In this document: positions 37,823 through 57,410 of the stretch, one piece after another | Layout: the number at the start of each line of letters is the position of its first letter | Position numbering within the stretch: position 1 is the first letter of the stretch | Source of the DNA: a virus | Strand: one strand, 5' to 3' | Length of the DNA stretch: 64,000 nt | IMG/VR virus record: IMGVR_UViG_3300009502_000041 | Coordinates: 1 to 64,000 of that record | Program-made: the position numbers and the translations under genes | Notes under the pieces: generated by a model | What the model was told of the DNA's origin: nothing | The model's database searches: none | What the model saw: only the letters and a program-made list of their open reading frames with translations

Positions 37823-38125
37823 AACGTTAACAATAACAGAAGTAGCTTTGTTAAAAAATCTAAAGGTGCTTATTCTAGCGCATTTAAAAATGGTTGGTTT
37901 GATGAAGTTTGTTCACATATGATTATAAAACATAAACCAAAAAATTATTGGAATAAGGAAATGTGCACAAAAGAAGCGTTAAAATATAACGGCAGATACG
38001 AATTTCAAAAAAATTCAATGAGTGCTTATCGTTCGGCAATTTTAAATGGCTGGCTAGATGAGGTTTGTTCGCATATGGTAATTTCTGAAATCTATTTAAA
38101 AACACAAAAGAATAATGAAAGATAA
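37823..38125 (+). pseudogene. homing-endonuclease repeat remnant without a nuclease domain
   Basis: Frame of 37919 extends upstream as RSSFVKKSKGAYSSAFKNGWFDEVCSHM, then YWNKEMCTKEALKY...NGWLDEVCSHM; same repeat as 60033..61418. Confidence 0.65.
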
Positions 38126-38807
38126 AATAATAGTAGTTTTCTCTTCACATTTAGGAGAAGAATACGATAATAAATTCATTAAGCATATTAGTGATACCAT
38201 TGGAGTTAAGCATACAGCAATTGCTTACCCCAATTACAATCAATTTAGTTTACCTGAAGTCTACAATCTGGCAATAAAAGAAAATAATGCCAAAAATGTG
38301 ATATTTGTGTTCTGTCACAATGATCTAACCATACTCAGCCCTAATTGGGGAAGATTATTACTTACAAAATTTAATAGCACTAATTATTCGATTATTGGTG
38401 TTGCTGGTACTACATACCTTAACGAAAATGGTGTTTGGTGGCACGATAGATCAACAATGCATGGCGTTGTTGAACATACCGATGGAACAAACACATGGGT
38501 TAATGAATACTCAAAACCACGTGCTGGACATATCACTCCCGTTGTTTTAATTGATGGTTTATTTATGGCTGTTGATTGTAATAACATTGAACATCAATTT
38601 GATGAAGATTTTAAAGGCTTCCACCACTACGATACTTCGTTTTGTTTACCTAATGCAATTGCTGGCGTAAACATTGGTGTAACCACCGATATAAGAATTT
38701 TACACCAATCAGTGGGTATGACAAATGACCAATGGGAATTAAATAGGATACAATTAGTAGAAAAATATAAAAACGAATTACCAATTTCAATTAATGATTT
38801 TAATTAA
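38115..38807 (+). CDS. GT-A glycosyltransferase-like protein
   Basis: SLPEVYN, VFCHNDL, IIGVAG, LIDGLFMA, FDEDFKGFHHYD. Confidence 0.85.
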   Translation: MKDKIIVVFSSHLGEEYDNKFIKHISDTIGVKHTAIAYPNYNQFSLPEVYNLAIKENNAKNVIFVFCHNDLTILSPNWGRLLLTKFNSTNYSIIGVAGTTYLNENGVWWHDRSTMHGVVEHTDGTNTWVNEYSKPRAGHITPVVLIDGLFMAVDCNNIEHQFDEDFKGFHHYDTSFCLPNAIAGVNIGVTTDIRILHQSVGMTNDQWELNRIQLVEKYKNELPISINDFN

Positions 38808-38813
38808 AAATTT

Positions 38814-39446
38814 ATGATTAAAGTAGATAAAATAGATGGCGGATTACCAATAAGCATTATTGTACCTCTAAGTAAAAGCAGAAAAGACTTTTTTGAGCAC
38901 ATGGTATTACCGCTAATTGAAGCAAATGATGTTAATGAAATTATTGTTAATGATGATGAGGGACGTGCACCTAAAAAAAGAAATGCAGGATTTAAAAAAT
39001 CAACTCAGCCATTCATACTGTTTGTAGATGATGATATTCTACTACCAAGTAATTATGCATCAACATTATACAAAACTTTAATGAAAAATCCCGATGTTGA
39101 TTTTGTATATACTGGGTATAATGGCATTGTGTTACATCCCGAATCACACCCAATAGGAAGAAATTTTCAAATTCCACCAATTGAATTTAGTATTAACGCT
39201 TTAAGACAAGGAAATTATATTTCGACAATGACATTGATGCGCAGAGAAGTATTTCCAATGTTTGACGAAAATTTAAAAAGACTACAAGACTGGGACATGT
39301 TTTTAACTATCTGTAAAAATGGTGGTAAAGGCATTTTAGTGCCGAATTTAACCTTTTATGCATTCTACCTTGATTCGGGTATTACTTCTAATGATAATAG
39401 TGAAATTGATGCTCTAAATGCAATAAGAATTAAACATCAAATTTAA
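38814..39446 (+). CDS. glycosyltransferase family 2
   Basis: ISIIVP, RNAG, ILFVDDD, FDENL..LQDWD. Confidence 0.9.
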   Translation: MIKVDKIDGGLPISIIVPLSKSRKDFFEHMVLPLIEANDVNEIIVNDDEGRAPKKRNAGFKKSTQPFILFVDDDILLPSNYASTLYKTLMKNPDVDFVYTGYNGIVLHPESHPIGRNFQIPPIEFSINALRQGNYISTMTLMRREVFPMFDENLKRLQDWDMFLTICKNGGKGILVPNLTFYAFYLDSGITSNDNSEIDALNAIRIKHQI

Positions 39447-39454
39447 GTATTTAT
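39447..39454 (+). promoter_or_regulatory. putative late promoter inside the glycosylation island
   Basis: AAGTATTTATT immediately after the stop of the preceding GT2. Confidence 0.55.
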
Positions 39455-39458
39455 TTTA

Positions 39459-40649
39459 ATGAAGAAACAAAACATTAAAATTAAAACGATAATAAAAAAA
39501 AGAATTGAAAATAATAATATTTTTTTTATTGGGAATAAAAAAATGAATGAAAGAGATTTGAGAAGAATAAATGGTGGGAGTAATAATCTTAAATCATTAT
39601 CTTGTAATGAAAAGCAAAATAATGATTTAAGACAAATAAATTCACCAATAGAACCAGAAAAATTAATATTAAAAACTGTATCAAAATATAGTTTATTGAC
39701 CAATAAAACCGCATTTAAATCAGGTTTAACTCTTAAGACCGCACCCAAATCGGTTATTCCTGATAAAGAAATGAGTAATTTCATTACATCAGAAGCAACA
39801 TCCCGTGATGGTAGAAGAAATACAACAAATAACTTATCTATCGACCATTCTACTTCGTTGAGTCGTGACGAAAGAAGAACAGGATATAATGTTCAAACGT
39901 TATTAAATAACAGTATATATCAAATTAAAGCATTTGTTGATTATGATGTTGTGATATGTATCCCTTCTTATAATAGATACGAAAAGGTTAAAAGATTGAT
40001 ATCTCAATTTTATTCACAAACAACAAAATATAGATTTAAAATAATATTGTTAAATGATGGATCAACAGATAATTCATATAATGATTTAATAAAAGAATTT
40101 CCACAAATCACATATTTAAGCAATAAAACCCCAAACGGTAAAACAATGCATTGGTATTGTTATAATCAAATGTGGAGTTATTTAAAGAACATTGAATATT
40201 ATACCGTATTGCAAATGGACGATGATTTCATATTATCAAAAAATTTTTTAAATAATATTCTTGATTTATATTTTAAATTAAAACAAGAAAATAATACAAT
40301 ATTAGCAATTTCCCCTCATTTATGGTCGTTTAATAAAAAAAGTAATCATGAAATGTGGTGGGATAAAAAAGATTTTGTTGATGGAATTGCGTTAATTGAT
40401 GAATCTGTAATTTCCTCAATGAAATATGAAATGAAAAAAGTTGATGTTGTAATGGTAAGTAAACCGGGCATACCCGTTCGTACATGGATACAAATATCCG
40501 AAGCAATTGTGAAAATGGGCGGAATTATATATAGAACACAGAATTCATTAGTATATCATGATGGTAATGATGATTCAAAGTTACATGGCGATGTTAGAAA
40601 AAAGGGCAAAAATGGGGTTTATACACAAAAATATATCGAAAAACTATGA
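39459..40649 (+). CDS. glycosyltransferase family 2 with N-terminal extension
   Basis: VVICIPSYNR, LNDGSTD, LQMDDD; true start may be ATG 39543. Confidence 0.85.
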   Translation: MKKQNIKIKTIIKKRIENNNIFFIGNKKMNERDLRRINGGSNNLKSLSCNEKQNNDLRQINSPIEPEKLILKTVSKYSLLTNKTAFKSGLTLKTAPKSVIPDKEMSNFITSEATSRDGRRNTTNNLSIDHSTSLSRDERRTGYNVQTLLNNSIYQIKAFVDYDVVICIPSYNRYEKVKRLISQFYSQTTKYRFKIILLNDGSTDNSYNDLIKEFPQITYLSNKTPNGKTMHWYCYNQMWSYLKNIEYYTVLQMDDDFILSKNFLNNILDLYFKLKQENNTILAISPHLWSFNKKSNHEMWWDKKDFVDGIALIDESVISSMKYEMKKVDVVMVSKPGIPVRTWIQISEAIVKMGGIIYRTQNSLVYHDGNDDSKLHGDVRKKGKNGVYTQKYIEKL

Positions 40650-41380
40650 TAAGCGTAATTTTAAATGTTTACAAAAGACCTCACATGTTAGAGAAGCAAA
40701 TTGAGGCAATAAAAAACCAATCGGTTAATGTTAAAAGTGAAAATATACATGTTTGGTATAATAAAACAGATGTTGCACAATATTTTCCTTTTGATAAGAA
40801 AATTAATACATATGCATGTAATTGGAATACGAAATTTTGGGGTAGGTTTACAGTACCTTTATTAGTTAGAACACCTTATGTTGCAATGTTTGATGATGAT
40901 ATTATTCCCCAAAAAGATTGGTTAAAGAATTGTATAAATACAATTCAAAAACCCGAAACAAATGGTATTTTAGGCGGTAGTGGAGTTTTATTAAAAGCCA
41001 AATCGTATACACCTTTTGATAAATTTGGATGGAATGGTAATCATTTAGATAAAACTGAACGTGTTGATTTAGTTGGACATGCTTGGTTTTTTAAACAAGA
41101 ATGGATAAAATATCTTTGGTATGAAAAACCATCCACATGGGAAAATGGTGAGGATATAATGTTTTCATTTCTTGCACAAAAATATGGAAATATAAACACT
41201 TTTGTTCCACCACATCCTGAAAATAATAAAGCATTATGGAGTTGTGATTTTAAAATTGGTAATGAGGTGGGCAATGATAAGAATGCTTCTTGGTTAAAAG
41301 GTGCACATTACGGTCAGAGAGACGAAATTGTTAAATATTGCATTAATAATGGATGGAAAACCGTTAATAATATCAAATGA
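40646..41380 (+). CDS. glycosyltransferase family 2-like
   Basis: ISVILNVYKR, AMFDDD, NGEDI. Confidence 0.85.
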   Translation: MISVILNVYKRPHMLEKQIEAIKNQSVNVKSENIHVWYNKTDVAQYFPFDKKINTYACNWNTKFWGRFTVPLLVRTPYVAMFDDDIIPQKDWLKNCINTIQKPETNGILGGSGVLLKAKSYTPFDKFGWNGNHLDKTERVDLVGHAWFFKQEWIKYLWYEKPSTWENGEDIMFSFLAQKYGNINTFVPPHPENNKALWSCDFKIGNEVGNDKNASWLKGAHYGQRDEIVKYCINNGWKTVNNIK

Positions 41381-42081
41381 AAAATCATTCATTTGATATT
41401 ATTAAATTAATTGAAACCAAAGAAGGGTGTTATTTTTTTAGGATTTTTATGGGCAGATGGTCATATTAACAAGAAGTCATCGAGAGTTAGTTTAGATTTG
41501 GTTAGAGACGATGCCGATTATTTATATAAACAATGTTTAGTCATATCAAATGATTTTAATATGAAAATGAAACCCGAATATATTAGAAATGATTCATTGA
41601 CAGTTAGGCGTAAACCTCAAAATATTATATATTTAACAAATAATAAATTATCATTATTTTTAAAAAATCATGATTATATGAATAAAAGTAATGTTAGTGC
41701 AGATTCAATATTAGAAATTGTTAAATATAAAAATTTCTGGTTTAGGGGATATTTCGATGGTGATGGATCATTATTAATTAGAGAAAGAAATAAAATATTT
41801 AATAGTAGTTTACAATTTTCATCAAGTATTGAACAGGATTGGAAATTTTTGTTAAATCTTTAAATTTAAAAAGCTTTAAAATAATTAGAAGAATTGAAAA
41901 ATCTGGAAATTCTTCGATGTTTAAATCAGAATCGATTTATGAATCAAAAATATTTTTAGATTATGTTTATTCTGATTATTTAAATATTGGCTTACATAGG
42001 AAATATTTAATATATTTACAATTAAAAGAAATAACTTTGAAAAGAAAAAGTAAATATGAAAACATTTGCAGGGGATTTTGA
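41377..42081 (+). pseudogene. LAGLIDADG homing endonuclease split by two frameshifts
   Basis: FLGFLWADG and FRGYFDGDG motifs; frame breaks at the T run ~41433-41439 and near 41840-41860. Confidence 0.8.
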
Positions 42082-42781
42082 TAAATTTTTAAATAAAATT
42101 AAAAATAATAAATCATTTTCGTTATCTCGTTGGGGTGATGGTGAGTTGTCCATTTTAGAAGGTCTTTATATTGACATTCGCTCAAAAGGCAATGGTGAAT
42201 TCAGATACGATCCTAAATTGGATCAATATACTAGTGTTAGAAATAAATTAAATTTGTCTTTCATTGGTAAGTCTAATGAATATTATATAGGAATTGCATG
42301 CCCTTGTTGTGTTGGTGATGACAAATACCAATATATGAAGAAAAAATCAAAACAAGATGAGGAACACTTAACTTGGGCAAATATTTTTGTTAATGCTAAT
42401 TATAGTAAGACAATTAATGACTTAATTCCTGAATTTAAAAATCATACGATTAATCTTGTTGTTAATAAAAATTCTAAATTAGATAAATTACCGTTTAAAC
42501 CTAAAAAAGTTTGGTATGTTGGAACCGATGCTTGGGAGAGTGATTATAAATTAGTCGGTGAGATGATAAAACACATAAAAGATAATTCAATAATGAATGA
42601 GATATTTTTATTTGCTGCCGGACCGTTGGCAAACATTCTTACGTATGAATTATGGTTTTATGCAAGTAAGAGTAATACCTATATAGATATTGGTTCGATT
42701 TTAGACCCATATTTACAATTAAAATTAACAAGAGGATATCACTTAGGTGCAACTACTTTAAATAAAATTTGTAGGTGGTAA
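42056..42781 (+). CDS. GT-D fold (DUF1792-like) glycosyltransferase
   Basis: SFSLSRWGDGE; C-terminal AAGPLAN...IDIGS. Confidence 0.75.
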   Translation: MKTFAGDFDKFLNKIKNNKSFSLSRWGDGELSILEGLYIDIRSKGNGEFRYDPKLDQYTSVRNKLNLSFIGKSNEYYIGIACPCCVGDDKYQYMKKKSKQDEEHLTWANIFVNANYSKTINDLIPEFKNHTINLVVNKNSKLDKLPFKPKKVWYVGTDAWESDYKLVGEMIKHIKDNSIMNEIFLFAAGPLANILTYELWFYASKSNTYIDIGSILDPYLQLKLTRGYHLGATTLNKICRW

Positions 42782-42800
42782 TATATTAAATGTTTATAAT

Positions 42801-43451
42801 ATGAATAATATTGTTTTTGCACATAACGTATATAATAGATTAAAAACTTTAAAAGACACTATTTTAGTTGAGAAAAAATATTTTCCCAATTCAAATATTA
42901 GTGTGGCTTGTAATGATGTTTTTATTAATATTTTTTATGATATTACTAATTTTTCTGTTATTCGTTTTAATGAACGTGAACATAAAATTGGTTGTGTTAA
43001 TGGTTGCATATCATCGATAAAACAGTTATTAAACCAAGTGTTTGATGTGCTAATTTTTTCACATGATGATGTTAGAATTAATGAACGTTATATTAATATT
43101 GTTGAAGAACACATTAACAGTATTATTGAAAACAAATATGATTGTATTTGTCGTAAACCATTAAATGGATATGGGGATGATTATTATCTCATGGAAGTGT
43201 TTTATATATCAAAAGAGGCTGCTGTTAAAATATTTTCAAATTTAAATACAATAAATAATGAATCAGAAATCCCAACCGATATTAGAGGTTCGATTTCTCC
43301 AGAGGTTTTTTTATTTCAAAATATAAATAAATTTAATCTCAAAATTAATGAAATTAAATATGTTCATAATGATAATGATTATAATGAAATACTAGGAAAA
43401 ACAATGGGTTATGAACATTTGAATGCTGGAAATAGAGGTTGGATTGATTAA
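42801..43451 (+). CDS. putative glycosyltransferase
   Basis: LIFSHDDV acidic motif; island context. Confidence 0.55.
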   Translation: MNNIVFAHNVYNRLKTLKDTILVEKKYFPNSNISVACNDVFINIFYDITNFSVIRFNEREHKIGCVNGCISSIKQLLNQVFDVLIFSHDDVRINERYINIVEEHINSIIENKYDCICRKPLNGYGDDYYLMEVFYISKEAAVKIFSNLNTINNESEIPTDIRGSISPEVFLFQNINKFNLKINEIKYVHNDNDYNEILGKTMGYEHLNAGNRGWID

Positions 43452-43473
43452 ACAATTAAATATATATATAGTT

Positions 43474-44097
43474 ATGAATAAAAGAGAAGATTTTGTGTTA
43501 TCGTATTACGATGGTTTTAATAAATTAACTGGGGTTAGTTTAGAAGATTTTGAGAATTATTATAATGAAGCCATTTATGGTGGATACCCCGAAGAACCGG
43601 GTGGTAGTATCTGGGAAAGTGAGGGTAAATCTATATATGTATTAATACGTATATTAAAACCTAAAAAAATATTGGAAATTGGTAATTTTTTGGGAAGAAG
43701 CTCAAATCATATACTACAGGCAGTTGAAAAAAATGGCATGGGCGAAGTTACATTGCTTGATATTGAGGAACGTTTACAATACGATAAACTTCACAATAAA
43801 AATTTTAATAGAGTTCTGGATGACTCATTAAATCATTTATCATCCCCAATGCAATATGATTTATTTGTACAAGATGGAAACCATGCTCGTGAACATGTAA
43901 CTAAAGAAATTAAGTTGATTTTAGATAATAATTTACCTAGTAATTATTATATTTGGGCACATGATTATTATATGAGAACACATCCTGATTGTGGAGTGTG
44001 GTTAGCTTGGGATGAAATGAAATCAAAATTTAATGACTTTCAAACATTTCAAGATTCTAAAAGTAATTGTGGTTGCTCAATAGCAAAAAAAATGTAA
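43474..44097 (+). CDS. class I SAM-dependent methyltransferase (Methyltransf_24-like)
   Basis: KPKKILEIGNFLGRS, YDLFVQDGNH, WAHDY; likely start MNKRED. Confidence 0.85.
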   Translation: MNKREDFVLSYYDGFNKLTGVSLEDFENYYNEAIYGGYPEEPGGSIWESEGKSIYVLIRILKPKKILEIGNFLGRSSNHILQAVEKNGMGEVTLLDIEERLQYDKLHNKNFNRVLDDSLNHLSSPMQYDLFVQDGNHAREHVTKEIKLILDNNLPSNYYIWAHDYYMRTHPDCGVWLAWDEMKSKFNDFQTFQDSKSNCGCSIAKKM

Positions 44098-44098
44098 A

Positions 44099-44368
44099 AT
44101 GTATAATCCTAAAGAATATTGGGAAAATGAATTGGGTGGAGTTGAAAATTGGAAACACGATGCAGATACTTCACCCAATATTGTTAGGTCAATTGATAGA
44201 CTTAGAAATGTAGTAATACCAACTATTGTTAATTTAAAACAAGTCAACGGTGGTAATATTTTAGATGCTGGATGTGGATGCGGATACTGTGCAAATGAAT
44301 TTAATTTATCAAATTCATTTAATAATGTATATGGCATTGATTTTCAAATAATATACGCCAAAAAATGA
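44099..44368 (+). pseudogene. truncated SAM-dependent methyltransferase
   Basis: YNPKEYWE, ILDAGCGCG, VYGIDF, then ends at 89 aa. Confidence 0.65.
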
Positions 44369-45306
44369 CAAAAATTGCTTTTCATAGTAATCAATTATGT
44401 TTGAGAGGTACTGAAGTGGCTTTATATGACTATGCTAAGTATAATGAAGAACTACTTGGAAATAAAAGTATTATTATTTCTAAACATCCAGATGTGTGGA
44501 AATATTCACATCCATTGGCGATTGAAAAATTTAAGAAAAGATTTCCTGTTTATTTTTATAATGATTTTAATGAGGTTGAAAAAATATTGGATAATAATAA
44601 TGTGGATATTTTTTATGCAATTAAAGCTGGAATAAATGATGGAATTGTTTCGACTAGTAGAAAATCTGTCAATCATGTCGTATTTCAAAATTATGAGCCA
44701 CATGGTAATGTATATGCATATGTCTCAGAATGGCTTGGGAGAAGGTATAATTCACCCTTTGTACCACATATGATAACGTTACCCGAAGTGAATGATGACT
44801 TAAGAAATGACCTGAATATACCCAAAAACGCAATTGTTTATGGTCGTCATGGTGGTGCAGAAACATTTAATTTGCCTTTTGTTTATGATGTAATAAAACA
44901 AATATTATTAAAAAGAAGTGATATTTATTTTCTTTTTTTATATACAAATAAATTTATTGATCATAAAAACGTAATTTATTTGGAAGGCAATAGTGATATG
45001 GAATATAAGACAAAATTTATTAATACTTGCGATGCAATGTTACATGCTAGACATCAAGGCGAAAGTTTTGGATTGTCTGTAGGGGAATTCTCAATTAGAA
45101 ATAAGCCCGTTATAACATGGACACATGGTAGAGATGGTGCACACATCGAAATGCTGGGTAATAGGGGAATTTATTATAATAATGATGTTGAATTATTCAA
45201 TATTTTAAATAACTTTGTACCTGACCCTACAAAGGATTGGAATGCATTTAAAAATTATAATTCGGAAAGTGTTATGAAAATATTTAATAATGTTTTTTTA
45301 AAATGA
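44365..45306 (+). CDS. glycosyltransferase family 4-like (GT-B)
   Basis: RGTEVALYDYA, GRHGG, CDAMLHAR..GESFGLSVGEF. Confidence 0.88.
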   Translation: MTKIAFHSNQLCLRGTEVALYDYAKYNEELLGNKSIIISKHPDVWKYSHPLAIEKFKKRFPVYFYNDFNEVEKILDNNNVDIFYAIKAGINDGIVSTSRKSVNHVVFQNYEPHGNVYAYVSEWLGRRYNSPFVPHMITLPEVNDDLRNDLNIPKNAIVYGRHGGAETFNLPFVYDVIKQILLKRSDIYFLFLYTNKFIDHKNVIYLEGNSDMEYKTKFINTCDAMLHARHQGESFGLSVGEFSIRNKPVITWTHGRDGAHIEMLGNRGIYYNNDVELFNILNNFVPDPTKDWNAFKNYNSESVMKIFNNVFLK

Positions 45307-46055
45307 AAATAGCGACCCATTTATTGTTTTTTAACCAAGACAATTTCATATTAAAAAATATTGAAATGATTGCGCCGTTTGTAGATAAAATATATGTCAC
45401 TTGGAGCGAATTTCCTTGGTTATACAATTTACAGGCAAGAGATTTGTTTAAAAACAAATCAAACCCCGAACTTCTAAAACAATCGCCATATTACGATAAA
45501 ATTGAATTAATTATAGGTGAATGGAATCTTGATGAAGACCAAAGAAACGCATGTCTTGATGCCGCAAAGCGTGATGAAATGGATTATCTGTTAATAATAG
45601 ATGCTGATGAGTTTTATACTCACGAAGATTTAAAAAAACTAATAACCGATATAGCAAACAATCCTGATTATGAATATTATACTACACCTTGGTTTACATA
45701 TTGGAAAGATTATAATCATGTTATAGTTAACAAAAACGGTAATTATATTAATGGCTTTCCAGAAGTTTGTGTTAATTTAAAGTATAATAACAGATTTATT
45801 AGATGCAGAAGACCATCAGGCACAAGAATTAAAAAATTGACCTCATTATGTGGGCATGCATCATATGTATTAAACAATGAGGAGTGTTGGAGTAAAATTA
45901 ATACTTGGGGTCACGCCCATCAATTTAATAGAAATCAGTGGTATATGGATAAATGGATTAATTGGAATGAAAACACAATAAATTTACATCCAATTGACCC
46001 AAGCGCATGGTATAGAACAATTAAAACACCTGAAGAATTAAAATTAAATATATGA
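45303..46055 (+). CDS. glycosyltransferase family 2-like
   Basis: QRN, YLLIIDADEF. Confidence 0.8.
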   Translation: MKIATHLLFFNQDNFILKNIEMIAPFVDKIYVTWSEFPWLYNLQARDLFKNKSNPELLKQSPYYDKIELIIGEWNLDEDQRNACLDAAKRDEMDYLLIIDADEFYTHEDLKKLITDIANNPDYEYYTTPWFTYWKDYNHVIVNKNGNYINGFPEVCVNLKYNNRFIRCRRPSGTRIKKLTSLCGHASYVLNNEECWSKINTWGHAHQFNRNQWYMDKWINWNENTINLHPIDPSAWYRTIKTPEELKLNI

Positions 46056-47065
46056 TACTTATTGCCTACGGGACCCGTCCAGAAATACTTAAAATACAGT
46101 CGGTTATAAATGTTTTTGATGAGAATAATGTTCAATGCGTAACATTATTTACTGGTCAACACGCTAATTTAATTGGTAGACATAATCCAAACTATATAAT
46201 TGATATTGTTGATATACCTTATGTTAGTAGACTCGATTGTATTGTTAAATCAATAATGGGTTTATTTACAACAATAGGTCTCCACCCAGTTAAAACAGAT
46301 TATGTTTTGGTTCAGGGCGATACTACCACAGCACTTGCTGTTGCTTTAACGGCATTTCATAATGGTATAAAGGTTATTCATTTAGAAGCTGGATTGCGAA
46401 CATACGATAATAATAATCCATATCCAGAAGAGGTAAATAGAAAAATGATATCACAAATTGCTGATATTCATTTATGTCCAACAGAACACGCAAGATTAAA
46501 TCTTGTTAGTGAAAACATAACAAAAAATGTATTTGTTGTTGGCAATACGGTAATTGATAATTTATTACCGTATAAAAGTATGTGTGAATATACAAACAAA
46601 ATATTGGTTACAATGCATAGACGTGAGAATCATCACTGGTTGGATAAATGGTTTATTGAAATCAACGAATTGGCTAAGGATCATCCCGAATATGAATTTA
46701 TATTACCGATACATCCGAACCCAAATGTGATGAGGTATAAGCATTTATTAACGAACGTAAATGTTATTGACCCATTATCATACGATGCAATGCTGAGTTT
46801 ATTGGTTAAAACAAGACTTGTTATTACTGACAGTGGTGGATTGCAAGAAGAAAGTAGTTTCTTTAATAAAAAATGTTTAACTTGCAGAATTGTTACAGAA
46901 AGACCCGAAGCAATAGGACAGAGCACATTTATGGTTGAAAGTCCATCAGTATTGAAAAAAATATTTGACGAACATATTGATAATTATGAAATTAATTATG
47001 TTTCACCGTTTGGTGACGGACACTCTGCAGAAAAAATACTAAAAATATTAAAGAATATTATATGA
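46052..47065 (+). CDS. wecB: UDP-N-acetylglucosamine 2-epimerase (non-hydrolysing)
   Basis: GTRPE, TGQH, VQGDTTT, HLEAGLR, PEEVNR, VGNTVID, HRREN, TDSGGLQEE, TERPE. Confidence 0.96.
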   Translation: MILIAYGTRPEILKIQSVINVFDENNVQCVTLFTGQHANLIGRHNPNYIIDIVDIPYVSRLDCIVKSIMGLFTTIGLHPVKTDYVLVQGDTTTALAVALTAFHNGIKVIHLEAGLRTYDNNNPYPEEVNRKMISQIADIHLCPTEHARLNLVSENITKNVFVVGNTVIDNLLPYKSMCEYTNKILVTMHRRENHHWLDKWFIEINELAKDHPEYEFILPIHPNPNVMRYKHLLTNVNVIDPLSYDAMLSLLVKTRLVITDSGGLQEESSFFNKKCLTCRIVTERPEAIGQSTFMVESPSVLKKIFDEHIDNYEINYVSPFGDGHSAEKILKILKNII

Positions 47066-47823
47066 GGAAAGTACTAGTAATTGGCGATAGCTGTCAGGAC
47101 ATATTTAATTATGGGGTTTGTAATAGATTGTGTCCTGAAGCACCTGTACCTGTTTTTAACCCAACTAAGATGATAATAAACGGGGGAATGTCAATCAATG
47201 TATTTGAAAATCTTAAATCATTAAAAATTGATTGCGACATTGTAACCAATGATCACAGACCAATAAAAACAAGATATGTTGATGAGGTTTCAAACCAAAT
47301 GTTATTAAGGGTGGACGAAAAGGATGTCGTTAAAAGAATTGAGGAAAAAAGATTAAAATCAATTGACTTTAGTAAATATTATGCAATTGTAATTAGCGAC
47401 TATAATAAGGGATTTTTAGATGAAGAAGATATATATAGTATCACCAATTCACATTCATTAACTTTTTTGGATACAAAAAAAGAAATTAAAACGTGGGCAA
47501 TGAACACCAATTTTATTAAAATTAATGAAAATGAATATAATCGAAATTTATTTTATTTTAAAAATCACCATACTAAAGACTTAATAGTAACATTAGGCAA
47601 GAATGGTGCAATGTTAAATAGAGAAGAAATATTTCCAATTACTGGTAATCATGATATTAAAGATTTGTGTGGTGCTGGTGATACTTTTTTTGCAGGACTT
47701 GTTGCGGATTTCATAAATAATAACGATATTCGCAGTGCAATAGTATTTGCAAATAAATGTGCATCATGGGCTGTTACACAAAAAGGAGTTTCTGTTATGA
47801 ATTTAATAAATGAAATAAAATGA
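47062..47823 (+). CDS. heptose-7-phosphate kinase-like (HldE/RfaE domain I, PfkB family)
   Basis: VLVIGD, RLCPEAPVPV, KTRY, LLRVD, ISDYNKG, D.CGAGDTF. Confidence 0.88.
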   Translation: MRKVLVIGDSCQDIFNYGVCNRLCPEAPVPVFNPTKMIINGGMSINVFENLKSLKIDCDIVTNDHRPIKTRYVDEVSNQMLLRVDEKDVVKRIEEKRLKSIDFSKYYAIVISDYNKGFLDEEDIYSITNSHSLTFLDTKKEIKTWAMNTNFIKINENEYNRNLFYFKNHHTKDLIVTLGKNGAMLNREEIFPITGNHDIKDLCGAGDTFFAGLVADFINNNDIRSAIVFANKCASWAVTQKGVSVMNLINEIK

Positions 47824-48120: not shown

Positions 48121-48657
48121 TTGAAAAAGATTTACAATTTTACAACAGATAAGAAAGAAATTTTAGAAGTATTAGACGTGAGACGAAAATTCGTTAACTA
48201 CTTTTTTATGTGTTTTCATCCTTGGAGCAAAAAGAAAGCAAAAATTGTTTTCACTAATGGTTGTTTTGATTTAATTCATTCTCAACATGTAAATCTTTTA
48301 AATAAATCCAAAGAACTTGGATTTTATTTAGTTGTTGGGGTAAATTCAGACAAATCGGTTAAATTGCTTAAGGGAGAAGATAGACCTATTTTTAATGAAG
48401 ACGATAGAGCATTTATTCTCTCAAGTTTAGAGGCGGTTGATTGCGTGATAATTTTTGATGATTATTCGGTGTTAGATTTGATTAAATTCATTAAGCCAGA
48501 CATTATAACCAAGGGTGATGATTATCAAATAAACCAATTAAATAATGTTGGTGGTGAATTTGTTAAAGAATATGGAGGTAAATTAGAAATTATTCCCACA
48601 AAAAAGGGAATGGCAACTAGTGATATTATTAATAAAATTATAAAAATTTACAAATGA
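48121..48657 (+). CDS. heptose-1-phosphate nucleotidyltransferase-like (HldE/RfaE domain II)
   Basis: VFTNGCFDLIH, VVGVNSDKSV..LKG..RPI, KPDIITKGDDY. Confidence 0.88.
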   Translation: MKKIYNFTTDKKEILEVLDVRRKFVNYFFMCFHPWSKKKAKIVFTNGCFDLIHSQHVNLLNKSKELGFYLVVGVNSDKSVKLLKGEDRPIFNEDDRAFILSSLEAVDCVIIFDDYSVLDLIKFIKPDIITKGDDYQINQLNNVGGEFVKEYGGKLEIIPTKKGMATSDIINKIIKIYK

Positions 48658-49289
48658 AAATTGGAAACATTATTTATGAAAAAGAATTGGTTAATCATGT
48701 TAAAGTAGATTTTGTTAATTATTATAACGAAGCCATTGAATATGATAAACTCGATAAGACTTTACCTACATTATGTGTTGGTTGGTCGTTTATGAAGAGT
48801 TGTAATGTTGATAATGAAATAATTCAAAACGCAGACATTCTAAAGAAGAAAATAATTGCAAATGAGTTATATTGGGAATGTAGTTTTGAGGAAAGCAAAT
48901 CGTCTCACATTAAAGGAGTTGGAAGTTTTATAAACCTAATTCCTCAACTTTATTTTCCACCAAAATATCAATACATAAATTTAGACCCAGTGTTTTTTCA
49001 ATTAAAAGATATTGAGGATTTAATGGATGTGATTCCAAAGCACTTTGATGTTTTATATAGGTTTAAAGACGAAATGCTTTATATATTATTTCAAAATAAA
49101 ATATCTGGCATAAATTTAAAAACATATGAATTTTATAAATTTGATATTGAGAATTTATGTAATAGAATTTCCGAGAGAGCAAATACAATTCACATTGATT
49201 TGGATGGTAAAATTCATGAAGATTATTATAAAATTTTACCCAATTTTACCCAACTTAAAAGATATCTAATCACATTGTTGACAAAATGA
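48654..49289 (+). CDS. hypothetical protein
   Basis: 211 aa; LPTLCVGW. Confidence 0.7.
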   Translation: MKIGNIIYEKELVNHVKVDFVNYYNEAIEYDKLDKTLPTLCVGWSFMKSCNVDNEIIQNADILKKKIIANELYWECSFEESKSSHIKGVGSFINLIPQLYFPPKYQYINLDPVFFQLKDIEDLMDVIPKHFDVLYRFKDEMLYILFQNKISGINLKTYEFYKFDIENLCNRISERANTIHIDLDGKIHEDYYKILPNFTQLKRYLITLLTK

Positions 49290-49327
49290 ATGTTTCGTAG
49301 TATTTATATGAAATAAATATAATTATT

Positions 49328-50651: not shown

Positions 50652-51098
50652 ATGAAAGTATTTCATTCACATGGTACAAAAGAAAGACTCTTCGAAATGA
50701 TGAAAAGGGTTAGTAATCTTAATGAACAATTATTGCCGTTTCAAAAAAAAGATGAAATTTTAAATAATTTTGTTGAGTTTGCAATAAAAAAACTTGATTT
50801 GGAAAATGATTCACCAAATGTGGTGGTATCTCATAAAGATAATGATGCTGAAGAAATGAAATCTTTTGGGAAATTTTTCCCCGACACTAACGAAATTAAG
50901 GTTGTTGGAACAAACAGAAATTTAGCTGATGTGTTAAGAACGATTGCACATGAAATAGTGCATTACAAACAAAATAAAGAGGGTAAATTAAATCAAAACT
51001 CAGGTGAGACAGGAAGTGCCGAAGAAAATGAAGCAAACGCACTTGCTGGTGTTCTTATGAGGGAATTTGGTAAAATGCATCCAGAAATATTCGAATAA
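50652..51098 (+). CDS. zincin-like metallopeptidase with a putative head-targeting leader
   Basis: RTIAHEIVHYKQ (HExxH), EENEANA. Confidence 0.75.
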   Translation: MKVFHSHGTKERLFEMMKRVSNLNEQLLPFQKKDEILNNFVEFAIKKLDLENDSPNVVVSHKDNDAEEMKSFGKFFPDTNEIKVVGTNRNLADVLRTIAHEIVHYKQNKEGKLNQNSGETGSAEENEANALAGVLMREFGKMHPEIFE

Positions 51099-51110
51099 AA
51101 AATTTATACA

Positions 51111-53144
51111 ATGAAAATATACAACCAAATTGGTAGTAAAGACAGACTTTTTGAAATGATGAAAAATGTCAACAAAGTCAAATTAAATGAAGATTTTAAT
51201 GCAAACGCATCTGACATTCTGGATATTGAGTTTAATGGACTAAAAAACCAAACACTTAAAGTTCAACAAAGTAATGTTCAGGCAAGTGATAATAAAAGCT
51301 ATGTTGAGTTGGTTTGTCTTGACGAACAAGGGAATGTAATAGACTTTAATTTCGAAGTGGAAGCATCTGAGGGTGATCAAGACGGTGTGTATAATATTAA
51401 CGGAGCTAAATTATTGGGATTTAAATTTACGAATAAGGCTGGAAGTAATACAGTTTCAATTGATGAAAATGGGTTGGCTCAATTTAATTCCTTGCATGGT
51501 AATGAGTTGGTTGATGTTGTTAGTAATTATGCCGATTTTGAGTCGGGTACACCAGAAATTGACGAATCTTTTGTAGAGATAGCAAAAAAAATTGATTCTT
51601 ATCCATTCGGTGGTACGCCAAGAACAATGCAAACATCTAAGGCATATGCAGATGAAAAACCTACAAATCCTAAACTTAGAGTTAAATCTCCAGAATTGAA
51701 TAAATATGTTGATGAGGGAAATTTACCAGTTAATGACTTGCCAGATAATAAAATACAAATTATAAAAACAGCAATTAATAATTTAGAAACAAAAGGCATC
51801 TCAAAAAGTATGTTAACAACTGGTGAGGTTAATTCTGAAATTCAAAGAATGTTAAGTAGTGGTGAAGCTAGTTTGGATGAAACTACAAATACAACCCAAA
51901 CGGTTGATACTGCACCAACGGTTGATATAAAATCAATACCTGATTTTAATACCAAAGATATTAGCACAAAATATTATGAAGAATTGCCACCAGTAACAAA
52001 ATTTGAGGTAATTCAACAGGCACTGCCAATTACAGACAAACTTTTTAAAAACTTAGGTAGAAATCCACAAGAAGCATCACGAGAAGAATATGCTGACGTA
52101 CTGAAAAGAGTTGCAACAAAAATGTATCAAAAGCATATGACGCAAATGAATGGAAGTGGTGATTTGGAAGAAGGGTTTGGAAAAAATCTTGCAGCAGGTG
52201 CATTAATGACGGCAGCTACAATGGGGGGTATGAATAATCAAGCACAAGCAGCACCTCATTTTGGTGATAAACTAAAAGCAAAAATGGAAAAAGTTGGTGG
52301 TGGTGTTCAAAAAACTATTGATAATTTTAAAGATAGAGTTGCTAATTTTAGAACCCAAGGGGGTGGAATACAAACAGAACCATCAGAAACCTCAACACAA
52401 ACGTATGAGAGAATGAGTAAAGAAGACGGATTTGGACAAGGTAAATCACCAGACCAAAGTACAGCAAAAAAGATTGCACTGAATAATGCACAACATAATC
52501 TTGCTAGAGTCGCCACTGGAAATAGAACTACAGTAAATGCAAATGTTAATAGCACTAATATTACAGATGAGGTAACTTATAGAAATAAAGATACTGGGGA
52601 ATATACGACATATGTGGTGGTGACAGCTAATGTACAGAATCTTAGAGAAGACGATGAAATGTCATTTGAGCCAAACGGCGATGAGGTTGAACAACTTGCA
52701 CAAGATAATGAAATACGGAATGATAACGAAGAATCGCCATTAGAATTCGACCCAGACCAAGTATTGGCGGGATTAAAAGTGGAGATGGAAGAAAATCCAA
52801 ATCCAATGGAAGCGTTGGAAATTGTTATGGGTAATTTGGAAGAAGACCCAGAATATTATGTAGTTGGAGATGATAATGTCGATGGTCAAGAAGAAAATCC
52901 TTCGACCGAATTTACAACCGATGATACTGAAGATATTTTACTAGGTTATAAACAAAAGGGCGATGTGGATGAAGAAATGATTGGTGCTACTGGTGCAAAA
53001 CCTGTGGTAGATACCAATACAGCCAAATATGATCAAGATTCAGAAAGAAAATACAAAGAATACCAAGCTAAAGATTTTAATTCACTACCCGATAATGATA
53101 AGGAAGAATATTTTACGCTGTGGCAACAATTTAAAGACAAATAA
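51111..53144 (+). CDS. multidomain putative head-packaged polyprotein (LPP20-like and DUF5661-like segments)
   Basis: Leader shared with 50652; GFGQGKSPDQSTAKKIALNNA; GLKVEMEE..ALEIVMGNLEEDPEYY. Confidence 0.6.
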   Translation: MKIYNQIGSKDRLFEMMKNVNKVKLNEDFNANASDILDIEFNGLKNQTLKVQQSNVQASDNKSYVELVCLDEQGNVIDFNFEVEASEGDQDGVYNINGAKLLGFKFTNKAGSNTVSIDENGLAQFNSLHGNELVDVVSNYADFESGTPEIDESFVEIAKKIDSYPFGGTPRTMQTSKAYADEKPTNPKLRVKSPELNKYVDEGNLPVNDLPDNKIQIIKTAINNLETKGISKSMLTTGEVNSEIQRMLSSGEASLDETTNTTQTVDTAPTVDIKSIPDFNTKDISTKYYEELPPVTKFEVIQQALPITDKLFKNLGRNPQEASREEYADVLKRVATKMYQKHMTQMNGSGDLEEGFGKNLAAGALMTAATMGGMNNQAQAAPHFGDKLKAKMEKVGGGVQKTIDNFKDRVANFRTQGGGIQTEPSETSTQTYERMSKEDGFGQGKSPDQSTAKKIALNNAQHNLARVATGNRTTVNANVNSTNITDEVTYRNKDTGEYTTYVVVTANVQNLREDDEMSFEPNGDEVEQLAQDNEIRNDNEESPLEFDPDQVLAGLKVEMEENPNPMEALEIVMGNLEEDPEYYVVGDDNVDGQEENPSTEFTTDDTEDILLGYKQKGDVDEEMIGATGAKPVVDTNTAKYDQDSERKYKEYQAKDFNSLPDNDKEEYFTLWQQFKDK

Positions 53145-53168: not shown

Positions 53169-53195
53169 AAAGACTGTTAATAGCAGTCTTTTTAT
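53169..53195 (+). terminator. intrinsic terminator
   Basis: AAAGACTGTT-aat-AGCAGTCTTT followed by a T run. Confidence 0.8.
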
Positions 53196-53225
53196 TTTTA
53201 TAGTATTTATAGTAAAAAAAGAAAA

Positions 53226-56200
53226 ATGTCAACATTTCGAAACTATTTTTTAAAGAATAATACTTTAATAGATAATAATCTAACAAATTCTTCACAGAAT
53301 CCAGTGTGTGAAATCTCATACGGGACTTATAATAAGCAAGTTAGCAGATTTATTTTTGATGTTGATTTAAGTAATTTACAAGATAAAATTGCAAATGGTT
53401 TTATTAACCCAAATAGAATTGTTAAACATGTATTGCATATGACCAATACAATTAGTGGTGCAGAACAATATGTTGGCAAAAAATCGTATTCGTTAAGTAT
53501 TGATAGAGCAACTAGTTTTAATTTAGAAGTTTTTAATGTTAATGAGGATTGGGATGAAGGGGGTGGTTATGATTTTATTTATAATGATAGCCAATTATTG
53601 GATTCTACGGTATATCCACAAGCATCAAATTGGTTTAGCAGAAAAACCGCAGATACATGGTTAACGGCTGGAGCATATTTTAGTGGTAATACTGAAATAA
53701 TTGGAACACAAAGATTCGAAACTGGTGGTGAGAATCTTGAAATAGATGTTACTGATTATATTAATCGAAGATTATTATATGGTAATATTTATACTGGCAC
53801 TACTAATTATACAGGTACTACTAACTATACTGGTGAAACTACGGGAACTACTGGTTATACAGGAACTACTGGTTATACAGGAACTACTGGTTATACAGCC
53901 ACGACATTTGGATTAGGTATTAAGTTCACAGATGTTTATGAACAACTCGATCCTGAATTTAGACAAGCAGTTGCGTTTTATACAAAACATACAAATACTT
54001 TTTATGAACCATACGTAGAGACAATTATTGATGATACAATCACTGACGATAGAAATTATTTTTATTTGGATAAAGATAATGATTTATATTTATATGCAAA
54101 TGCAGGACAGTCACAACAAAATGTTATTGTAAATCAAGTTAATATATATGATAATGAAGATATGTTACTTGGTAGTTTATCAGGTAACTCAATAGTTAAT
54201 GTAAGTAAAGGTGTTTATAAAATAACGTTAAACATTGATTCACAATCATATCCAGATGCCGTTATTTTTAGGGATGAGTGGATTATAACTATTAATAATA
54301 AAGAGATCACACATAACGGTGAATTTTATTTAATATCTCAGGATAAATATTTTACCTTTAATCAATCAAACCAAATTGATTTTAATAACTATTTTTTCTA
54401 TTTCTGGGGAATTGGGGAAAAGGAAAATATTAGAGCAGGTGCGGTTAAAAAAATTAAATTAACAATAAAAGAATTGTATTCAAACCAAGATAGTTTTTTA
54501 CCATTAGAAATTGAATATCGTTTATTCACAACAGTTGGAAAAAAATACGAAATTGATATAATTCCGTTTACTCTTACAAATAGAACTAATACTGGATATG
54601 AGTTTAGTCTTGATACTTCGTGGTTAATTCCCCAAGACTATTATTTACAAATTAGAATGAAAAATGGTGATTATTATGAAAATAAGCAAACACTATCGTT
54701 TACAATTGTAAGTGACGGTATTTTTGGCAATTTATCACATAAAATAACCACAACAAAAGCACCTAAAACAACCACCAGTACATCAACAAGTACTAGCACC
54801 AGTACCAGTACATCAACAAGCACTAGTACTAGCACCAGTACCAGTACATCTACAAGCACCAGTACATCTACAAGTACTAGTACATCTACCAGTACAAGTA
54901 CCACAACTAGTACAAGCACCACAACTAGTACATCTACTAGTACAAGCACCACAACTAGTAGTACAACCACGATAGCGCCAATACTTAATCCATTAACATT
55001 GTCTTTTGACAGTATTTTAAACGCTAATTTATTAATTGGTGGGAATTCATCGGATGTTAATGTGTGGAATACATTTTTTGATTTACCCACTAACGGTAAT
55101 TCGTTTGTAATTGCAACGGTAAGTGGAAATAGTGTAACTTTGCTTGGGGGAAACAATATTCATTTAAGAGATTCATTATTCTATGTAAATACTGTTCAAG
55201 GTAATACAACTTTAGTATCGATTGTTGATAGTTCATGTATTATTTCATCAGGAAATCAAGGTTTTATGTGTTGTGTTTCATTAACCACAATAAGTTTACC
55301 TTTATTAATTTCGGATAATGGACATTTTCTTTATGGGTGTACTTCCTTAACAACCGTTGATTTACCAAAACTGACCAATTCGGGAATATTTGGTTTTGGG
55401 TTTTGCACTTCATTAACATCAATTAATTTACCAAGTTTAATTACAACAGGAGATTATTGTTTTTATAATAGTACTGGTTTATATACTGTTAATTTACCAT
55501 TTTGTGTTAATTTGGGTAGTACCACTGGAAATGACTATGTATTTGGCGGAATTAGTGGAAGAGCTATTACACTTTCCGTTCCTCCAGCACTAATGACGTG
55601 TAATAATGGAAATCCAGATGGAGATATACAAGATTTCCTGTTTAATAATAATTCATCAATAATTTCCCCAGTAATATCTTTAAGTTTTAATAATATTACA
55701 AATGCCGATTTATTAATTGGAGGGAGTTCGTTAGATGTTAATGTTTGGAATACATTTTTTGATTTACCAAATAATGGAAATCCTTTTATTTCTGTGAGTG
55801 TTAGTGGAAACACTGTTGAATTATTTGGAGGAGAAGGTATTTTTCTTAAAGATTCATTATTTGATGATGCTGGAAGATATGGAACGAATTTATTATCTTT
55901 TATAGATTATGGAAGTATTATGAGCACTGGTTATGATTGTTTTGGGGCTGATAATAATGGGGGATGTCCTAATTTAATCACAGTGGTTCTACCAAGTGTT
56001 GCAACACTTGGTAATTATTGTTTTTTGGGGTGTTTTTCCTTAACAACCGTTGATTTACCAAGTTTGATTGTCGCAGGTCAAGGGAGTTTCCAACAATGTT
56101 CAAGTTTAATATCTATTAATTTTCCAAGTTTAATTAATATTAAAGACTATTGTTTTTATGGTTGTACATCATTAATAAATATCAATATACCTGCTTGTAT

Positions 56201-57410
56201 AAATTTAGGAACAACAACAGGAAATAACAATGTATTTTCAAACATTAACTCAAATATCATCACATTAACAGTTCCTTCTACATTGATGTCTTGTGATGGA
56301 GGTTTACCTGATGGAGATATAGTTATATTACAAGGAAATAACACAGTAACCGTCTTAACTAATGCGTTACAAATATCTATGACGTTTGTGAACACAAGGA
56401 GTTTAACTTTTTTTATTGGCAATGATCCTAGTGATATCAATGCGTGGAATACTAAATTTAATCTACCTACAAACGGTAATATATTTACTTCTGTTATTGT
56501 AAGAGGAAATTCTGTTATATTATTAGGTGGAAGTAATATTCATTTGAAAGACAACTTATTTAATCTTACTCTTGGTAGTAATGATAATGGCTTAGTGTCT
56601 TTTATTGATGGTGGATGTATTATAAGTGCAGGAAACAATGTGTTTGGAAATCAAAATCAACAAAAAGCCAATAGTAGTTTAACTACAATTAATCTTTCTG
56701 CTTTAACTACTGCTGGAAATGATTGTTTTTCTAATTGTTTTATGAATTACTTTAATGCACCATTATTGGAAACAATTGGTAATTCATGTTTCTATTACTG
56801 TTATTATTTGACTTCACTTAGTCTTCCTAGTCTAATAACCGCAGGGAATGAATCGTTTGCTTTGCTGAACTCATTAACAAATCTTGACTTACCTAAATTA
56901 ACAACTGCTGGAACTTCCTGTATTTCTTCTTGTTCTAGTTTGACTTCACTTAGTCTTCCTAGTCTAATAACCGCTGGGTATCGTTGTTTATATAACAATA
57001 CTAATTTAACCTCTTATGATTTACCAAAATTAACAAGTGCTGGCAGTGAATGTTTTAGTGGTTGTGTAGCATTAGTAAATGCTAATTTTCCAAGTTTAAC
57101 TACTGCTGGAAATACTTGTTTTTCTTATTGTACAGGACTAGTAAATATTAATTTACCAAGTTTAACTATTATTAGGGATAATTCTTTTACTGAATGCAGT
57201 TCATTAATATCAATTAATTTACCAATTTGTACAAATTTGGGATCAACTATTGGTAACAATGGTGTATTTGATGGAATAATAGGAAATACAATAACATTAA
57301 CCATACCTTCAGCATTAATGACTTGTAATGATGGTATAACCACTTTTGATCCTGATGGAGATATTCAATATTTACAGGCAAATAATACGGTAAATGTGAT
57401 AACCGTTTAA
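53226..57410 (+). CDS. large virion protein: N-terminal structural domains, Thr/Ser linker, three BspA-type LRR modules
   Basis: SRFIFDVDLSNL (DNRLRE-like), (TS)n tract, repeated CF.GCTSLT.INLPSL.TAG; GTATTTAT at 53203-53210. Confidence 0.8.
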   Translation: MSTFRNYFLKNNTLIDNNLTNSSQNPVCEISYGTYNKQVSRFIFDVDLSNLQDKIANGFINPNRIVKHVLHMTNTISGAEQYVGKKSYSLSIDRATSFNLEVFNVNEDWDEGGGYDFIYNDSQLLDSTVYPQASNWFSRKTADTWLTAGAYFSGNTEIIGTQRFETGGENLEIDVTDYINRRLLYGNIYTGTTNYTGTTNYTGETTGTTGYTGTTGYTGTTGYTATTFGLGIKFTDVYEQLDPEFRQAVAFYTKHTNTFYEPYVETIIDDTITDDRNYFYLDKDNDLYLYANAGQSQQNVIVNQVNIYDNEDMLLGSLSGNSIVNVSKGVYKITLNIDSQSYPDAVIFRDEWIITINNKEITHNGEFYLISQDKYFTFNQSNQIDFNNYFFYFWGIGEKENIRAGAVKKIKLTIKELYSNQDSFLPLEIEYRLFTTVGKKYEIDIIPFTLTNRTNTGYEFSLDTSWLIPQDYYLQIRMKNGDYYENKQTLSFTIVSDGIFGNLSHKITTTKAPKTTTSTSTSTSTSTSTSTSTSTSTSTSTSTSTSTSTSTSTSTSTSTTTSTSTTTSTSTSTSTTTSSTTTIAPILNPLTLSFDSILNANLLIGGNSSDVNVWNTFFDLPTNGNSFVIATVSGNSVTLLGGNNIHLRDSLFYVNTVQGNTTLVSIVDSSCIISSGNQGFMCCVSLTTISLPLLISDNGHFLYGCTSLTTVDLPKLTNSGIFGFGFCTSLTSINLPSLITTGDYCFYNSTGLYTVNLPFCVNLGSTTGNDYVFGGISGRAITLSVPPALMTCNNGNPDGDIQDFLFNNNSSIISPVISLSFNNITNADLLIGGSSLDVNVWNTFFDLPNNGNPFISVSVSGNTVELFGGEGIFLKDSLFDDAGRYGTNLLSFIDYGSIMSTGYDCFGADNNGGCPNLITVVLPSVATLGNYCFLGCFSLTTVDLPSLIVAGQGSFQQCSSLISINFPSLINIKDYCFYGCTSLININIPACINLGTTTGNNNVFSNINSNIITLTVPSTLMSCDGGLPDGDIVILQGNNTVTVLTNALQISMTFVNTRSLTFFIGNDPSDINAWNTKFNLPTNGNIFTSVIVRGNSVILLGGSNIHLKDNLFNLTLGSNDNGLVSFIDGGCIISAGNNVFGNQNQQKANSSLTTINLSALTTAGNDCFSNCFMNYFNAPLLETIGNSCFYYCYYLTSLSLPSLITAGNESFALLNSLTNLDLPKLTTAGTSCISSCSSLTSLSLPSLITAGYRCLYNNTNLTSYDLPKLTSAGSECFSGCVALVNANFPSLTTAGNTCFSYCTGLVNINLPSLTIIRDNSFTECSSLISINLPICTNLGSTIGNNGVFDGIIGNTITLTIPSALMTCNDGITTFDPDGDIQYLQANNTVNVITV
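53790..53900 (+). repeat. 18-bp coding tandem repeat (GTTGYT/GTTNYT)
   Basis: GGAACTACTGGTTATACA x3 at 53844-53897 plus degenerate upstream copies. Confidence 0.9.
54768..54971 (+). repeat. Thr-Ser low-complexity coding repeat
   Basis: ACN-AGY/TCN hexamer array encoding roughly 65 consecutive T/S residues. Confidence 0.95.

Follow-up and report, generated by a model that had tools for sequence, protein, structure and literature searches.

Islands of several sugar enzymes are a common feature of large aquatic phages, and what they act on is an open question. One such island lies at 38115-48657 in the first 64 kb (hereafter the window) of IMG/VR record IMGVR_UViG_3300009502_000041, a 74,270-bp linear viral contig of ~30% G+C with a CheckV completeness of 23%. 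Further downstream, a gene at 53226-57410 encodes a leucine-rich-repeat (LRR) protein with a pure threonine/serine (Thr/Ser) tract, and the initial annotation of the window joined the two, proposing that the phage builds a methylated O-glycan on this tract. Does the island serve the tract? Comparison with relatives speaks against such a coupling, as the island slot is filled in 6/6 related phage records and the tract is found in 0/52 related copies of the protein part that carries it in the window. The reading we favour, held with about as much confidence as doubt, is of a variable, lineage-wide glycan island acting in the cytoplasm, with virion proteins as the likeliest acceptor, and of an adhesin acquired independently of it. 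The locus provides a comparative frame for the wider question, combining a fixed slot of swapped content with a well-modelled carrier protein of surface type.

The contig is a piece of a jumbo-phage genome that has T4-type core genes and belongs to a lineage with genomes of ~330 kb. This we conclude from its tail sheath of 942 aa (phrog_23) and its gp19-like tube protein, from its nearest isolates (34-40% identity), T4-type myoviruses whose hosts are Microcystis, Flavobacterium and marine cyanobacteria, and from the closest relative found, G001, a 327,676-bp IMG/VR record rated 100% complete. The T4-type sheath and tube also bear out the phage origin first assigned to it. No DNA-level match to 38-58 kb was found among 50,697 phage records (megablast), and metagenomes are the sole source from which the phage is known. 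The 'moraphages' are a described aquatic jumbo lineage with T4-type core genes, Bacteroidota hosts and four core glycosyltransferase groups (PMC12619734). Six related jumbo-phage records were compared (G001-G006), of which G002-G006 are partial (30-66% complete, with 99-203 kb of each examined). The contig of the window is labelled G000, metagenome proteins P0272, P0274 (both from ENA), P0054 and P0002, and two loci L043 (from an unrelated phage) and L044 (in G001); a second lineage of the carrier is called lineage B.

The glycan island and the Thr/Ser tract among relatives

The island and its right border contain the following features:

38115-38807, + strand, GT-A glycosyltransferase (Glyco_tranf_2_5; PF13712, 92 bits), in all six relatives at 58-67% identity
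38814-39446, + strand, GT2 glycosyltransferase (30.7 bits), found in G001, G005 and G006
39459-40649, + strand, GT2 glycosyltransferase (43 bits) with an unassigned N-terminal part of ~160 aa
40646-41380, + strand, GT2 glycosyltransferase (31.9 bits)
41411-42081, + strand, LAGLIDADG-like element of two overlapping open reading frames (ORFs; weak LAGLIDADG match)
42056-42781, + strand, GT-D/DUF1792-like protein (PF08759 20.9, cut-off 27; PF22882 16.3; TIGR03728 29.6, cut-off 290)
42801-43451, + strand, unassigned 216-aa protein, common only to G003
43423-44097, + strand, S-adenosylmethionine (SAM)-dependent methyltransferase (Methyltransf_24, 37.2 bits)
44099-44368, + strand, 89-aa ORF, similar to a methyltransferase at its SAM-binding start only (weak match), not in G003
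44365-45306, + strand, GT-B-like protein (PF00534, Glycos_transf_1, 16.5 against a cut-off of 26.4)
45303-46055, + strand, GT2 glycosyltransferase (27.8 bits)
46052-47065, + strand, WecB, non-hydrolysing UDP-GlcNAc 2-epimerase (Pfam 252 bits; TIGR00236 242, above the equivalog cut-off of 210)
47062-47823, + strand, PfkB kinase above the Pfam cut-off (best NCBIfam model heptose-7-phosphate kinase, rfaE domain I, 105 against a cut-off of 345)
47820-48110, + strand, 96-aa HAD-like phosphatase (weak match, below cut-off)
48121-48657, + strand, heptose-1-phosphate adenylyltransferase-like (cytidylyltransferase-like) protein (TIGR02199 rfaE_dom_II, 172 against 181.5)
48654-49289, + strand, unassigned 211-aa protein at the right border of the variable slot, conserved in all relatives

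Five GT2/GT-A glycosyltransferases exceed the Pfam cut-off (38115, 38814, 39459, 40646 and 45303) and two more, the GT-D-like 42056 and the GT-B-like 44365, score only below it, so the contiguous run of about eight glycosyltransferases first described shrinks to five firm members and two sub-threshold ones. The 44365 protein is the sole GT-B-like protein of the island, where no second GT-B was found, and the 39459 protein has generic GT2 neighbours only in the ESM Atlas. Sequence searches of the PDB with 42056 and 44365 gave nothing useful, and a five-sequence profile of 42056 had no significant match there (Asp1 at E 0.16), leaving the GT-D assignment at its weak matches. The methyltransferases and nucleotide-sugar enzymes of the initial annotation are firm at 43423, WecB and PfkB; 47820 and 48121 fall below their cut-offs, and the fragment at 44099 is probably a methyltransferase remnant. 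The product of WecB is UDP-ManNAc. The four-step ADP-heptose set (GmhA, HldA, GmhB, HldC) is incomplete among the island proteins, where neither Pfam nor NCBIfam found a GmhA or SIS-domain isomerase; GmhA could be supplied by the host. No hydrophobic or membrane segment was found in any island protein. The LAGLIDADG-like element is an insertion, because the transferase genes flanking it directly adjoin each other in G003 and G006, and a 31%-identical copy of it sits at another site in G001.

The slot is bounded by tail/baseplate-type late genes (31083, 34113 and 37395) on one side and by a conserved late block from 48654 on the other. The 38115 transferase is the only island gene universal across the six relatives, with the others varying from genome to genome; G003 has seven island genes in common with the window, at 51-76% identity. 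The island is a real, variable, lineage-wide glycan-building block, exchanged as in an O-antigen locus. In the gap before it (37760-38100) lie two degenerate copies of a ...NGW(F/L)DE(V)CSHM repeat that recurs in a nuclease-associated protein at 60033-61418; no intact ORF spans this gap, which is therefore probably a decayed homing-endonuclease remnant.

The Thr/Ser tract does not follow the island. None of the 52 related copies of the carrier (residues 1-500 of the tract protein) has it, no Thr/Ser pattern was found in G002-G006 (141 kb in the case of G003), and across 604 kb of related DNA that were scanned no further real gene had a Thr/Ser tract. Lineage B also has GT2 genes, and its carrier is without a tract. 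Across the G001-G006 matrix no island gene shows a presence pattern following the tracts, and instead of a transferase cluster co-inherited with a Ser-rich substrate we find islands in G001-G006 and carriers without a tract. Co-occurrence across related phages, a check that the initial annotation itself had named, thus does not support the coupling of island and tract; with the enzymes retained where the spacer is missing, the two probably do not form a dedicated pair.

The carrier protein and its mobile LRR cassette

The gene at 53226-57410 (+ strand) encodes a protein of 1394 aa with the following parts:

53226-54035, + strand, carrier residues 1-270, CBM96-like carbohydrate-binding beta-sandwich (fold match)
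53787-53906, + strand, disordered (Y-T-G-T-T)n loop, residues 188-227 (18-nt tandem repeats)
54045-54725, + strand, carrier residues 274-500, two Ig/FN3-like domains (model and fold matches)
54768-54971, + strand, pure Thr/Ser spacer of 68 aa, residues 515-582 (39 T and 29 S)
54972-57410, + strand, three BspA-type LRR_5 modules (LRR_5/BspA, PF13306, 147.8 bits in four stretches; conserved caps)

The pure Thr/Ser tract is therefore as first described, and it is not a perfect microsatellite, as its codons are mixed. The view of the protein as late and of surface type also held, given its conserved late-type promoter and its CBM96-like, double Ig and LRR architecture. An AlphaFold model of residues 1-500, built from a 112-sequence alignment, reached a predicted local distance difference test (pLDDT) score of 89.5 and a predicted template-modelling (pTM) score of 0.87; an earlier model from a 24-sequence alignment (pLDDT 51.5) was discarded. 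The only disordered part of the carrier model is the (YTGTT)n loop, which is longer in the window than in relatives and minimal in lineage B. We considered TG[ST]T / TTG[ST] as a general acceptor sequon across 59 contig proteins (8 occurrences against 2.1 expected overall) and rejected it, because the enrichment is confined to the loop of the carrier itself (6 against 0.17 expected).

Residues 1-270 match the chondroitin-sulfate- and alginate-binding CBM96 modules 8wab and 7vbo in fold (8wab_B, Z 17.0, root-mean-square deviation 2.7, 169/176 residues aligned; 7vbo_A, Z 14.3), and glycan binding by the carrier is putative. Unlike those modules, the carrier has a 40-aa Thr/Gly-rich loop inserted and no match by sequence to Pfam PF24517 (CBM96), which was also absent from ten distant homologues. 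In the ESM Atlas, CBM96 appears in 14% of one neighbouring cluster, which we treat as a lead only. Foldseek matches of the Ig-like part include Hoc, and the carrier resembles T4 Hoc and other Ig-domain decoration proteins in having tandem Ig-like domains on a late phage protein; it differs in its N-terminal CBM96-like domain and in having no sequence similarity to Hoc, and capsid binding is putative. Gene order around the carrier is conserved in relatives, and 3.3 kb separate the carrier gene of lineage B from the gene for the major head protein. The carrier is probably exposed on the virion, like a Hoc-type decoration or fibre protein. Sequence searches of the PDB with the carrier gave nothing useful, and tblastn of the whole 1394-aa protein returned two weak LRR matches only.

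The carrier family is widespread and normally stands alone. Residues 1-500 have 428 representatives at E <= 1e-3 among 1.84 billion proteins, nearly all of 445-520 aa, and among the best 150 of these 428 representative matches none exceeds 721 aa. All 42 IMG/VR homologues (57-73% identity) are stand-alone proteins, 465-526 aa long where complete, and no LRR was found in them. With 7 IMG/VR loci and 3 sequences from the alignment they make up the 52 related copies (455-526 aa), all stand-alone.

Against this background the LRR cassette stands out. Its best match is 95% identical, and the cluster mates of that match, P0272 and P0274, are fusions of 1300 and 1320 aa in which a carrier only 34% identical to that of the window is joined to the cassette by a Pro/Thr spacer. 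Because a 95%-identical cassette sits on a 34%-identical carrier behind a Pro/Thr joint, these sequences mark the cassette as horizontally mobile and the spacer as variable, a clear case of horizontal transfer between distant carriers. The spacers of P0272 and P0274 differ by two 10-aa repeats, suggesting that spacer length is polymorphic in natural populations; the extra unit is two copies of TDTPTPTPAP and is apparently the sole difference between the two proteins. In a third fusion, P0054, a carrier 54% identical to that of the window is followed by a PTTT-repeat spacer and a different LRR_5 module. The known carrier-LRR spacers are thus Thr-rich in 3/3 cases and otherwise unrelated, and the carrier C-terminus is a recurrent display site for mobile LRR cassettes. 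P0002 (809 aa) was considered as a stand-alone LRR gene and rejected, as its cluster members show it to be a truncated gene call of the 1300-1320-aa fusion.

The BspA-type LRR family (PF13306) occurs in bacterial and Trichomonas surface proteins (PMC2843621); the window protein has three LRR_5 modules of this type, but fused to a phage carrier protein, and no paper on phage proteins with LRR_5 cassettes came up in our literature search. A similar LRR_5 module, 38-43% identical to that of the window, occurs behind a different anchor in L043, from a small unrelated phage. Two adjacent genes there (L043:9848-11266 and 11209-12696) have a common N-terminal anchor of ~40 aa, SRPIGQDPVS.QLWRISKQ, then a link rich in Pro or Thr, and after it differing C-terminal modules, and the pair looks like a swappable receptor-binding set. 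Two questions can be tested now: whether Thr-rich spacers are glycosylation tags or plain linkers, and whether the widespread carrier family is a display site for host-range or adhesion modules.

Candidate acceptors of the glycan

In the reading we favour, ManNAc (from WecB), heptose (from the kinase/phosphatase/adenylyltransferase set) and methyl groups would be transferred in the cytoplasm onto an acceptor that exists late in infection, most likely the virion surface proteins in general. We infer cytoplasmic transfer because all island products are soluble and the island has no flippase, polymerase or lipid-carrier initiating phosphotransferase. The protein at 53226-57410 would be a chimeric adhesin, composed of the carrier, the 68-aa Thr/Ser spacer and a captured three-module LRR cassette, with the tract as an extended spacer that came with the cassette or was built for it. 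The tract may be glycosylated as a bystander, but it would not be the reason for the island's existence. A precedent comes from the mycobacteriophages Che8, Corndog and Myrna, where, in the account that PMC12619734 gives of Freeman et al. 2023, glycans were shown on the C-termini of capsid and tail-tube subunits. As far as that account goes, these phages resemble the window in having soluble phage transferases with their own virion proteins as the proposed target; the window case differs in being known from genes alone, in a candidate acceptor that is the internal spacer of one chimeric protein, and in its larger island.

Several points weigh against this reading. In the complete relative, G001, large Thr/Ser tracts occur in two genes that follow the one for a gp6-like baseplate protein, a gene present in the relatives; since these tracts are baseplate-adjacent, mucin-like tracts do recur in the lineage, and together with the three Thr-rich spacers they are compatible with a glycosylated stalk. 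Only G001 is complete; the other five relatives stand at 30-66% completeness and may have tracts in their unseen parts. Most O-antigen transferases are soluble too, and absent membrane segments are therefore weak evidence. The virion location of the carrier is drawn only from its fold, promoter and gene neighbourhood, and the G001 carrier lies 58 kb from the capsid gene. Lastly, no recognisable protein-specific initiating transferase was found.

The G001 tracts themselves (G001:213112-217163; L044:6113-8695 and L044:8695-10164) are ~100-110 residues long, two of them in one gene. The counterparts of these genes in G002-G005 are short and tract-free. In four other relatives the ~55-aa N-terminal anchor of the first G001 tract gene is fused to a tract-free domain of 148 aa.

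It is possible, with the balance against it, that the island is instead an auxiliary host-envelope set that re-routes lipopolysaccharide, capsule or another surface glycan, for instance to block superinfection. WecB and ADP-heptose enzymes are classical for envelope glycans, exopolysaccharide and teichuronic-acid enzymes are, though with weak scores, the nearest NCBIfam neighbours of the island GT2s, and the variability of the gene content agrees with diversifying selection on a surface glycan. Comparable clusters in the cyanomyoviruses S-SCSM2R, S-SCSM1 and P-SSM2 (13 transferases and 22 cell-wall genes) have been read as envelope sets (PMC12801897). These and the moraphages are, like the source of the window, large T4-like myoviruses with T4-type core genes and with clusters of many transferases and nucleotide-sugar enzymes, whose make-up differs among relatives and whose target is not known (PMC12801897; PMC12619734). 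The window island differs from them in its combination of WecB, an ADP-heptose branch and a methyltransferase, and in its slot between late tail/baseplate-type genes. That position, among late structural-type rather than early genes, argues against an envelope role, as does the lack in the island of any membrane protein or of the export and initiating functions named above, which would make it fully dependent on host machinery. GmhA, the start of the heptose branch, is likewise missing from the island proteins.

A further reading, which we hold tentatively and would not expect to prevail, has the island make a methylated ManNAc/heptose glycan that is specific to the strain, and has soluble phage enzymes attach it to Thr-rich spacers in horizontally exchanged adhesin cassettes. 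Its targets would be the Thr/Ser run of the window and the two baseplate-adjacent Thr/Ser proteins of the 327-kb relative. The carrier would then display a phage-made mucin stalk tipped by an LRR adhesin, and Thr-rich spacers would be portable glycosylation tags, usable in any island-bearing phage of the lineage.

The initial proposal, a dedicated O-glycosylation system that acts mainly on the LRR protein's Thr/Ser tract and yields a mucin-like glycosylated stalk, now appears doubtful. It draws on soluble enzymes co-oriented with late genes, on a pure run of 68 Thr/Ser residues in a protein of surface type encoded 5.5 kb downstream, on the three independent carrier-LRR spacers, each Thr-rich, on the weak GT-D-like matches, and on the two closest genomes, G000 and G001, which both combine the island with Thr/Ser tracts in virion-type genes. 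Against it stand the six relatives that have the island and no related carrier with a tract, above all G003, which keeps seven island genes and no Thr/Ser pattern, as well as the failure of any island gene to track the tracts. Streptococcal serine-rich-repeat adhesin loci, which with giant-virus fibril glycans are the closest parallels to this proposal, contain GtfA/B, the GT-D enzyme dGT1 and an accessory Sec system. The window resembles them in having a Ser/Thr-repeat adhesin and several transferases in one genome, along with one weak GT-D match, but neither a GtfA/GtfB-like initiating pair nor an accessory Sec system was found, and the substrate gene is not adjacent to the island and is absent where relatives keep the island. 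The analogy, which is not supported, leans on the GT-D match, which is below threshold and gained nothing from the five-sequence profile.

Finally, hypermodification of phage DNA with sugars against restriction, like the T4 glucosyl-hydroxymethylcytosine system, is very improbable: phage glycosyltransferases are often DNA-modifying and this option has been cited for jumbo aquatic phages (PMC12619734), but the contig's only thymidylate-synthase-family gene (524-1747) is a true thymidylate synthase and not a hydroxymethylase (TIGR03284, 254.5 against 108), no T4-type alpha- or beta-glucosyltransferase family was matched, and seven transferases, methyltransferases and a ManNAc and heptose supply exceed known DNA systems. 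The thymidylate synthase (- strand, 407 aa) matches its model in separate stretches, and therefore has an insertion of ~100 aa.

Promoter-like motif and neighbouring genes

The window contains 25 copies of the motif GTATTTAT where 10.3 are expected, a count reached in 0/100 shuffles. It lies 9-73 nt upstream of the sheath, the tube and many other genes, usually 9-40 nt before the ATG, and its position is conserved before the homologues of 31083, 34113 and 49525 in six relatives; in relatives it also stands ~70-95 nt before a gp32-like gene and directly behind the 48654 homologue. Since it is both over-represented and kept in position across relatives, GTATTTAT is a real promoter-like element. 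The copies and the hairpin that bear on the island and the carrier are:

39447-39454, + strand, GTATTTAT, 4 nt before the ATG of 39459
49300-49307, + strand, GTATTTAT, just after the 48654 gene; in six relatives 206-242 nt before the 49525 homologue
53169-53191, + strand, terminator-like hairpin, the sole plus-strand one from 37.7 kb to the carrier gene besides a weak one at 52802
53203-53210, + strand, GTATTTAT, 15 nt before the carrier ATG; 13-26 nt upstream in 10/10 relatives

The 39447 copy had been taken as a late promoter for most of the island. It is the one plus-strand copy in the 11-kb island, where chance predicts ~0.9, and was absent before the 39459 homologues of G001, G003 and G006; given this and its 4-nt spacing, it is no evidence for a dedicated late promoter. 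The island may still be expressed late, as no plus-strand terminator-like hairpin was found between 37.7 and 52.8 kb and its transcription could therefore proceed by read-through from the late promoter at 34093. A scan for sigma-70-type promoters was uninformative (142 found against 134.6 expected).

Sequence searches of the PDB with the 49525, 51111 and 57531 proteins gave nothing useful. The proteins of 50652-51098 and 51111-53144 begin with a common N-terminal motif, (S/T)K(E/D)RLFEMMK.V, a leader that recalls, by analogy, the capsid-targeting sequences of T4 internal head proteins. The first of the two has an HExxH metallopeptidase motif and a weak Peptidase_M78 match; the second is long, acidic and of low complexity, and beyond its first ~200 aa it is not conserved in relatives. 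The 57531-58757 protein had no Pfam or PHROG match; it looks like a gp32-type single-strand DNA-binding protein, with a Cys/His zinc motif (CPAH...CPLC), an acidic tail at its C-terminus and a UvsX-like recombinase gene next to its own. At the end of the G000 contig (~73812-74270) the final 50 bases recur 408 bp upstream, which indicates a direct repeat there.

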